4,520 bases of DNA. Origin: a virus. Its lineage: Duplodnaviria; Heunggongvirae; Uroviricota; Caudoviricetes. This document shows positions 2,270-3,446 of this stretch, piece by piece. Each line of letters begins with the position of its first letter. Position 1 is the first letter of the stretch. The translations under genes and the position numbers were made by a program. The notes beneath the pieces were generated by a model, which saw only the letters and a program-made list of their open reading frames with translations, did not search any database and had not been told where the DNA came from. Where the stretch lies: the IMG/VR virus record IMGVR_UViG_2541047126_000023, one strand, 5' to 3'.

Positions 2270-2495
2270 CGCGAGTGCGTGTAACTTTTGATGTCATTCC
2301 CGTAGAAACACCGGACAAATTTTCGCTGACAGGTCATGCAGAAGGTATAAATCTGCAGATTATGGACAATTACGGATATCCGGCAAGAGCCGGAAAAAGC
2401 ATGCCGCCTCTAATTCTCAGTGGAAGATGGACTTGATTATACTCATTGCATTGTCAGAAATAGTTATCCATTAAAGGCTGGCTATTCCAAACAGG

Positions 2496-2523
2496 ATGTT
2501 GATTACAAAAATGTAATCAACAT
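2496..2523. promoter_or_regulatory. Perfect inverted repeat ATGTTGATTACA-aaaa-TGTAATCAACAT (12-bp arms, 4-bp spacer), a candidate operator in the AT-rich region upstream of the binding-protein gene
   Basis: Verified base by base. A perfect TATAAT hexamer lies at 2550-2555, with TATACT at 2532-2537 and TTGACT at 2569-2574, so the palindrome sits in the -35 zone of a plausible sigma70 promoter reading toward the gene at 2688. Confidence 0.35.
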
Positions 2524-2687
2524 GTAAGGTTTATACTCTTCAATATGCGTATAATTTTCCTTATTTTGTTGACTTTAAATAACAAGCTATGCACGAGGTA
2601 AAGTCGGATAAGTTTATCTGGATGTAATATATATTATTTGTAGTGTTTATAACTTTATTTCATGATAACCAATAAAAGGAGTTTTTT

Positions 2688-3446
2688 ATGAGGAACATAA
2701 TGGCAGGTTTTTTAATATTCCTGTCTTCTGCTGCTTATGCTGATATCAATCTGTATGGTCCTGGTGGCCCGCATACAGCCTTGCTTGATGCAGCCAAACT
2801 TTATGCCGAAAAAACAGGTATTATAGTGAACGTTCATTACGGCCCACAGAACAAATGGAATGAAGATGCCAAAAAAAATGCAGATATCTTGTTTGGCGCA
2901 TCAGAACAATCTGCTCTGGCTATCATTCGGGACCATAAAGACAGCTTCAGTGAAAAAGATATTCAGCCTCTTTATCTGCGAAAAAGTATTTTACTGGTAA
3001 AGAAAGGTAATCCTAAAAATATCCGGAGTATTGACGACCTGACCAGACCTGGGATTGGCGTAATTGTTAATGATGGTGGTGGTACCAGTAATACATCAGG
3101 CACTGGCGTCTGGGAAGATATTGCCGGACGTAAAGGGAATATAGAAACTGTCGCCGCAATCCGAAAAAATATTATTTTATATGCGCCCAATAGCGGAACT
3201 GCACGTAAGGCTCTTGAGAATCAGCCTGGAGCAGATGTCTGGATAACCTGGGCTGACTGGGCAGCCAGTAATCCAGAAATTGGTGATGTCGTGGAAATAG
3301 CGCCAGACTACGTGATATGGCGTGATATGAACATTACAGTACGTCAGGATGCAAATGATGAAACCCGTCGATTTGCAGAATGGCTACAAACCGATGAAGC
3401 GGCGCCTGCATTCAAAAAATATGGCTGGACTAGGAAAGGCACTTGA
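2688..3446 (+). CDS. ModA-family (molybdate/tungstate/sulfate-type, PBP type II fold) periplasmic substrate-binding protein with Sec signal peptide; orphan (no permease or ATPase in window)
   Basis: SD AGGAG at 2677-2681, 6 nt before ATG 2688. The N-terminus MRNIMAGFLIFLSSAAYA/DI is a classic signal peptide with an AxA cleavage site. The mature protein has ModA-like motifs: INLYGPGGPHTALLDAA...TGIIV (compare ITVFAAASL...KGVDV), ADILFGASEQ (compare ADLFISADQ), and the C-terminus RRFAEWLQTDEAAPAFKKYGWT (compare KAFYDYLKGPQAAEIFKRYGFT of E. coli ModA, from memory). The gene is visibly AT-rich, roughly 40% GC by eye against roughly 55-60% in the flanks. Confidence 0.85.
   Translation: MRNIMAGFLIFLSSAAYADINLYGPGGPHTALLDAAKLYAEKTGIIVNVHYGPQNKWNEDAKKNADILFGASEQSALAIIRDHKDSFSEKDIQPLYLRKSILLVKKGNPKNIRSIDDLTRPGIGVIVNDGGGTSNTSGTGVWEDIAGRKGNIETVAAIRKNIILYAPNSGTARKALENQPGADVWITWADWAASNPEIGDVVEIAPDYVIWRDMNITVRQDANDETRRFAEWLQTDEAAPAFKKYGWTRKGT

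Follow-up and report, generated by a model that had tools for sequence, protein, structure and literature searches.

The open reading frame at positions 2688-3446 on the plus strand of the window, a 4,520-nucleotide stretch of DNA that was analysed as a whole, is almost certainly paa, also known as adfO (z2053), whose 252-residue product belongs to the AcfC/PEB3/Paa family of orphan solute-binding-fold proteins. The gene is lysogenic-conversion cargo of the ompW-integrated lambdoid prophage (PPompW, or CP-933O, O-island 57) found in Shiga-toxin-producing E. coli. In our view the best overall explanation, with a probability of roughly 0.85, is that paa/adfO is prophage cargo encoding an exported binder of an anionic ligand, which would promote colonisation without an ABC importer.

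The encoded protein shows no differences over 252 residues from the EDL933 protein WP_001449026.1, which carries the RefSeq name "AcfC family adhesin Paa". At the DNA level, positions 2440-3446 match EDL933 with 99.9% identity and E. coli strain 7784 without a difference (100%), and this region was found in 610 of 5426 complete E. coli genomes, with at least 99% identity in 563 of the 612 matching records. The genomes annotate the matching DNA as "paa: AcfC family adhesin Paa" with a "fimbrial protein" pseudogene before it, and GenBank records of PPompW phages label the gene 'Paa/adherence factor AdfO'. Since the protein is identical to the named Paa and the DNA is annotated as paa/adfO, the gene is already known and named, and there is no new system here. 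A preliminary description, made from the letters of the window, had put the gene forward as a candidate for an undescribed accessory system; this does not hold, given that RefSeq and GenBank annotate it as paa/adfO and that the literature describes an adherence factor (PMC8565820, PMC11420993, PMC8524897). The accompanying idea of lysogenic conversion was right in kind, paa being a prophage-borne adherence and colonisation gene in the literature. Among 50,697 phage records the Paa protein was recovered in only 11, all of them PPompW prophages, and it matches phrog_11834, for which the PHROGs label is "unknown function". This label reflects an annotation gap that invites false novelty, and it may explain why the gene looks novel when approached from the phage side. 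The gene is a routine virulence marker for typing Shiga-toxin-producing, enteropathogenic and enterotoxigenic E. coli as well as E. albertii.

The same gene is known as Paa/AdfO in porcine EPEC O45 and in EHEC O157:H7 (OI-57, CP-933O/PPompW), the protein of EDL933 being identical. A review of the O157 O-islands equates adfO with z2053 in OI-57, notes the similarity of AdfO to Paa of porcine EPEC, and describes adfO as constantly linked to the hok-type gene ckf (PMC8565820). The flanks of the present copy are the same as those of the EDL933 locus, with a fimbrial pseudogene upstream and hok ('ckf') downstream, and paa lies between the prophage replication genes and hok/sok in the arrangement that had been noted from the window. 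Of the 124 differences between this copy and EDL933, 122 fall within positions 1-1250, in the replication module, while the paa region is without difference.

Comparison with related phages showed that paa occupies a variable cargo slot. Homology to the Rac-like phage backbone breaks at around 1800 (~1797-1809, at the end of a DUF1627/ydaW-like gene) and resumes at ~3560-3620 (~3556-3618) upstream of hok, and the slot between these junctions (~1810-3590) holds a 54-aa ORF, a decayed fimbrial gene and the paa cassette. In Rac, vB_EcoS-666R9 and pPE4 the same slot carries lygF, Ead/Ea22-like or other small genes. The GC content is 0.263 in the leader (2528-2687) and 0.437 in paa (GC3 0.345), compared with 0.545 in the phage backbone (1-1828). 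Thus, paa is an AT-rich phage moron in a variable prophage slot, and both the low-GC island and the cargo status proposed in the preliminary description were confirmed. The statement that paa sits alone in this island needs correcting, because positions 2440-2527 are the 3' end of the fimbrial pseudogene and the slot also contains the 54-aa ORF. The latter (1822-1986, plus strand) is a small hypothetical gene at the left edge of the slot that is annotated in EDL933 and matches phrog_30109, of unknown function; among phage records, its DNA is found only in the 11 PPompW prophages. The pseudogene (~1991-2527, plus strand) derives from a type-1 fimbrial subunit gene in which the start codon and the signal peptide are missing, deletions of 10 nt and 5 nt have occurred and an internal stop has arisen, in keeping with its RefSeq entry as 'fimbrial protein, frameshifted; internal stop'. 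Positions 2022-2486 share 85.6% identity with a fimbrial subunit gene that is still intact, within a chaperone-usher operon on plasmid CP099137.

A paralogous cassette is present on plasmid pSTEC299_1, where it adjoins an IS110 transposase and corresponds to positions 2502-3470 of the window. Because the homology spans exactly this interval, the mobile unit runs from the core of an upstream palindrome to the terminator. The two copies share 86.5% identity at the nucleotide level and 93.7% at the amino acid level, indicating that the substitutions separating them are mostly synonymous.

We then considered what the sequence of Paa predicts about its location and fold. The N-terminus, MRNIMAGFLIFLSSAAYA followed directly after the cleavage position by DINLYGPGGP, combines a single basic residue with a hydrophobic core and an A-x-A cleavage motif, and it lacks a lipobox Cys. 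These features predict an 18-aa Sec signal peptide (2688-2741, plus strand) cleaved between AYA and D, and residue D19 of Paa aligns with residue 1-2 of the mature crystallised PEB3 chains 3fj7_A and 2hxw_A. In the family alignment, the mature N-terminus D/E-[IV]-N-[LM]-Y-G-P-G-G-P is conserved across AcfC, PEB3 and Paa proteins. A phmmer search against the PDB returned full-length matches to PEB3 (E = 1.2e-81, query residues 11-248) and to AcfC (4jb7; E = 3.5e-81, query residues 16-248), and Pfam SBP_bac_11 matched over profile positions 1-226 of 227 (5.5e-34, 118.3 bits against a gathering threshold of 25). The fold was assigned by homology to these solved structures, a single-sequence AlphaFold2 model having a mean pLDDT of 41.2 and a pTM of 0.31. 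The Paa pre-protein is thus predicted to begin with a Sec signal peptide of 18 aa, which is followed by a mature domain (~234 aa) with the two-lobed class-II periplasmic-binding-protein fold. The Sec-type N-terminus, the SBP_bac_11 match and the full-length PEB3 and AcfC matches together bear out the initial reading of a secreted protein with a periplasmic-binding fold, and the profile-HMM check that had been proposed was positive for SBP_bac_11 (118.3 bits against 25).

The cleft loops YGPGGP, G-x-G-x-SNTSGTGVWED, PNSG and DxWITWxDW are all present in Paa, and a 25-sequence alignment shows them conserved among family members with at least 43% identity. PEB3 of Campylobacter jejuni (PDB 2hxw, 3fj7, 3fjg, 3fir), a full-length homologue of Paa, shares with it both the mature N-terminus D-x-N-L-Y-G-P-G-G-P and the SNTSGTGVWED loop. 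The residue preceding SNTSGTG is Lys in PEB3 (GAG-K-SNTSGTG; E in one deposited chain), Thr in Paa and Val in AcfC, and since this loop residue differs, ligand specificity may differ as well. PEB3, which is presumably N-glycosylated, is encoded on the chromosome, whereas Paa is prophage-borne. AcfC of Vibrio cholerae (VC_0841, PDB 4jb7), the second full-length homologue, is ~50% identical to Paa and, like Paa, is an orphan solute-binding protein encoded on a mobile element, in this case a pathogenicity island; it is a colonisation factor and is periplasmic (PMC5976639). The V. cholerae acfC gene follows the chemoreceptor gene acfB, whereas the prophage paa is without a signalling neighbour.

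The preliminary description had pointed out that no ABC permease or ATPase gene is present in the window, and we found none within 6 kb on either side in EDL933. To place this in context, we surveyed 33 AcfC/PEB3/Paa-type loci with 34-87% identity, taken from contigs of one genome per species and spanning Escherichia, Citrobacter, Edwardsiella, Providencia, Aeromonas, Francisella, Vibrio, Endozoicomonas, Campylobacterales, flavobacteria and betaproteobacteria. ABC ATPases were screened for as ORFs with Walker-A and LSGGQ motifs within 4.5 kb of the locus. No such ORF was detected at 29 of the 33 loci, and at the remaining four, all from Vibrio, the only flagged ORF was one of 487 aa located 2.3 kb away, so that an operon-like ABC ATPase neighbour was found at none of the 33. 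By the same screen, an ABC-ATPase-like ORF was found near 14 of 22 distant SBP_bac_11 relatives (22-32% identity), usually one or two genes downstream on the same strand. ABC families were likewise absent from the 25 most frequent Pfam families in a scan of 108 neighbouring ORFs. The absence of an ABC partner is therefore a property of the whole AcfC/PEB3/Paa clade and is not peculiar to the prophage copy. Among the individual neighbours, V. cholerae has an MCP (AcfB), a Campylobacterales genome a histidine kinase and Burkholderia a SLAC1/TehA-type channel; ECF sigma factors, a phage integrase, and YeiH-family membrane proteins together with LysR regulators also occur. Beyond phages, family members reside in the Vibrio pathogenicity island and at chromosomal loci in Edwardsiella, Francisella, Campylobacter and others.

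Published work connects paa/adfO with colonisation. The gene is described as a factor for adherence and for attaching-effacing lesions in porcine EPEC and EHEC O157:H7 (PMC8565820, PMC11420993, PMC8524897), and mutants are reported, in second-hand summaries, to adhere less and to form fewer attaching-effacing lesions (PMC8565820, PMC8524897, PMC11420993). In an adfO mutant, several other proteins are no longer secreted either (PMC8565820), and contents of the bovine rumen and rectum induce paa in EHEC (PMC8524897). Of the homologues, AcfC was placed in the periplasm by fractionation; in vitro it binds mucin, heparin and chondroitin sulfate, as measured by ELISA, and it affects how the bacteria are distributed in the gut as well as their chemotaxis towards mucin (PMC5976639). 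The product of peb3 is described as binding phosphometabolites such as 3-phosphoglycerate or as part of a transporter for them, and colonisation of the chick gut requires the gene (PMC12469816). AcfC had no effect on adhesion to Caco-2 or HT-29MTX cells (PMC5976639), and orthologues may therefore not share one mechanism.

In the mechanism that we propose, Paa would be exported by the Sec pathway as a soluble protein lacking an anchor and would bind an anion-bearing ligand, probably a phosphorylated or sulfated metabolite or glycan of the host or gut. This ligand would be held in the cleft lined by the YGPGGP, SNTSGTGVWED, PNSG and DxWITWxDW loops. Operating without an ABC importer, Paa could aid colonisation through a non-ABC partner (a sensor, a chemoreceptor or the machinery of secretion) or, should it reach the surface, as a direct binder of host glycans.

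The latter route, in which Paa is a true adhesin, is the most serious alternative, and we regard it as a real possibility that nonetheless falls short of even odds. Exported Paa would reach the surface or the medium, for example through the type 2 secretion system of pO157, and bind glycans of host cells or mucus directly to support early attaching-effacing adherence. The designation of Paa/AdfO as an adherence factor and the reduced adherence of mutants (PMC8565820, PMC11420993, PMC8524897) agree with such a role, as do the binding of sulfated glycosaminoglycans and mucin by AcfC in ELISA (PMC5976639) and the RefSeq name 'AcfC family adhesin'. However, the ORF translation and a Pfam scan revealed no lipobox, no beta-barrel and no autotransporter domain, and so no membrane or surface anchor, in Paa. 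Furthermore, AcfC is periplasmic and without effect on adhesion to cell lines (PMC5976639), PEB3 is treated as a periplasmic metabolite-binding protein (PMC12469816), and the loss of several other secreted proteins in the adfO mutant suggests an indirect effect (PMC8565820). Weighing these observations, we lean, with about an even chance of being right, towards an indirect periplasmic route over direct adhesion.

One specific form of the periplasmic route, which we put forward tentatively and with considerable doubt, is that Paa is no adhesin at all and instead serves as a 'plug-in' periplasmic sensor, supplied by the prophage, for a gut-derived phospho- or sulfo-metabolite or a glycan fragment. 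Such a sensor would signal to a chromosomally encoded non-ABC partner (a chemoreceptor, a sensor kinase or a secretion system), and adherence would shift indirectly. The occurrence of an MCP gene in V. cholerae, of a histidine kinase gene in Campylobacterales and of genes for anion-channel or YeiH-type membrane proteins next to family members is compatible with a sensor, and the same is true of the lack of ABC neighbours throughout the family.

A different explanation would make Paa a conventional substrate-binding protein of the ModA, Sbp or CysP type, delivering molybdate, tungstate, sulfate or thiosulfate to a chromosomally encoded permease and ATPase in trans. We consider this very unlikely. 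It draws on the Pfam SBP_bac_11 fold and on weak, local similarity to the sulfate-binding proteins Sbp (1sbp, 3.5e-4) and SubI (1.2e-4), which are the next PDB matches after PEB3 and AcfC, together with weak matches to NCBIfam sulfate-binding-protein models. These models for sulfate/thiosulfate-binding proteins, however, scored only ~20-22 bits against cut-offs of 155-308, and the modA equivalog TIGR01256, whose cut-off is 62.5, gave 18.3 bits, without any single stretch exceeding the cut-off by itself. The best ModA chain in the PDB, 8zj6, matched Paa over just the 26 residues 223-248 (E = 0.13). Membership of the ModA family, as assigned in the preliminary description, is therefore rejected in favour of AcfC/PEB3/Paa, and the assignment survives only in a broader sense, Paa being ModA-like only at the superfamily level of the Pfam SBP_bac_11 family and clan. 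ModA, Sbp and CysP resemble Paa in their class-II PBP fold and in favouring anionic ligands, but Paa lies far under their family cut-offs and has no modBC or cysUWA neighbours. The absence of a permease or ATPase gene in the window and within 6 kb in EDL933, and of an operon-like ABC neighbour family-wide, further argues against a partner complex of this kind.

A role in serving the phage itself, as a periplasmic superinfection-exclusion or receptor-masking protein directed against competing phages, is even harder to sustain and seems highly improbable. Exclusion genes are often found in prophage moron slots such as the one that paa occupies, and the product of paa is predicted to be exported to the envelope. 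Yet the protein is confined to 11 of the 50,697 phage records, all PPompW, while the family is widespread outside phages (the Vibrio pathogenicity island and the chromosomes of Edwardsiella, Francisella and Campylobacter), and the reported phenotypes concern colonisation rather than phage resistance. No PADLOC family matched at E <= 0.01, and membership of a known anti-phage defence system was accordingly rejected. Finally, that paa is a functionless remnant hitch-hiking with the decayed fimbrial gene, as the adjacent pseudogene and the recombination junctions bounding the cassette might suggest, is scarcely credible in view of its intact ORF with at least 99% identity in 563 of 612 matching records, the excess of protein over DNA identity in the plasmid paralogue (93.7% against 86.5%), its induced transcription in bovine gut contents (PMC8524897) and the reported mutant phenotypes (PMC8565820).

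In addition, we examined the DNA elements bordering paa. The AT-rich leader (2528-2687, plus strand; 26.3% GC) contains a perfect TATAAT at 2550-2555 and, 6 nt ahead of the paa ATG, the ribosome-binding site AAGGAG at 2676-2681, in agreement with the strong RBS that had been read from the window. The plasmid paralogue retains both of these elements. A consensus scan of the leader detected no full sigma-70 promoter. Upstream of the leader, where the fimbrial remnant meets the paa cassette, the palindrome that had been proposed as a candidate operator is indeed present as a perfect 12-4-12 repeat, ATGTTGATTACA-aaaa-TGTAATCAACAT (2496-2523; hairpin of -14.3 kcal/mol), and the position of the ancestral fimbrial stop codon falls inside it. 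The full 12-nt arms occur only in the prophage copy; the plasmid paralogue, whose homology begins at 2502, keeps only the inner ATTACAAAAATGTAAT, and no such palindrome precedes the orthologues of E. albertii, Citrobacter and Edwardsiella, where the upstream regions do not align. A conserved operator is thus unsupported, the orthologue upstream regions being unrelated and the plasmid copy retaining the inner core alone. The palindrome is not a chance feature, and judging from these comparisons it is no less likely to be a junction or hairpin remnant than an operator. At the other end of the cassette, paa is followed by its own terminator-like hairpin and T-run (3445-3479, plus strand), as had been recognised before, with the hairpin at 3453-3466 and an extended stem at 3445-3473 (-13.3 kcal/mol); the right end of the cassette lies at ~3470, where the homology to the plasmid paralogue ends.

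The gene lying directly upstream of paa, at 1991-2527, is a decayed type-1 fimbrial subunit gene, in which the start codon and the signal peptide are gone; it also carries deletions of 10 nt and 5 nt and is interrupted by a stop codon. Its nearest intact relative (85.6% nucleotide identity) belongs to a chaperone-usher operon, as the second of the subunit genes, on CP099137, an IncF plasmid originating from a pig farm. That a degraded fimbrial gene with a plasmid-borne closest intact relative adjoins paa suggests that paa arrived in the prophage jointly with a piece of a plasmid fimbrial locus. 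A perfect 12-4-12 palindrome (2496-2523) straddles the point where the fimbrial remnant meets the paa cassette, and coincides with the site of the ancestral stop codon of the fimbrial gene. Only the inner ATTACAAAAATGTAAT of the palindrome is kept by the paralogous cassette on plasmid pSTEC299_1, and we found nothing alignable to this region in paa orthologues from other genera.

Directly downstream of paa is a hok/sok-type type I toxin-antitoxin module (3635-3937), in which the Rfam sok model (RF01794) matched 3635-3784 with a score of 103.9 bits and the mok/hok ORFs occupy 3725-3937. The hok-type gene has been named ckf in the literature, where it is described as a constant companion of adfO (PMC8565820). 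An isrK-like match at 3946-4027 was weak and fell under the gathering score.

The window is mosaic relative to E. coli O157:H7 EDL933, with 122 of the 124 nucleotide differences falling in the DnaT-like and P replication genes (1-1250). Across the remaining 3.3 kb (1251-4520), comprising the DUF1627 gene, the cargo slot, hok and rem, two positions differ. We additionally observed that a record labelled 'Actinobacillus phage vB_Apl-pPE4' (PP818812.1) matches the window at 85-88% nucleotide identity in its E. coli lambdoid replication and hok modules, a likeness unexpected for a Pasteurellaceae phage; the host may have been mislabelled, or the record may reflect contamination with an E. coli prophage.

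In PHROGs, Paa (2688-3446) was assigned to phrog_11834 (E = 4e-176), listed there as 'unknown function', which contrasts with the gene having a name and a recognised status as a virulence factor. Two further ORFs are likewise unannotated there: the small one at 1822-1986 (phrog_30109) and the Rem-like one at 4155-4415 (phrog_340).

At AcfC/PEB3/Paa-type loci of other bacteria (L020, L024, L031, L033 and L034), the genes adjoining the family gene are not ABC transporter genes. In V. cholerae the neighbour is an MCP gene. Elsewhere the neighbour is a histidine kinase gene (Campylobacterales), a SLAC1/TehA anion channel gene (Burkholderia), or a YeiH-family membrane protein gene with a divergent LysR regulator (Limnobacter and a gammaproteobacterial MAG). 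Taken together, these neighbourhoods point to non-ABC partners for this clade of solute-binding proteins. Separately, a Paa homologue in Providencia alcalifaciens (L012, 6001-6747; 67% identity) is interrupted by an in-frame stop codon and adjoins a phage-integrase-family gene, and is probably a decaying copy on a different mobile element.
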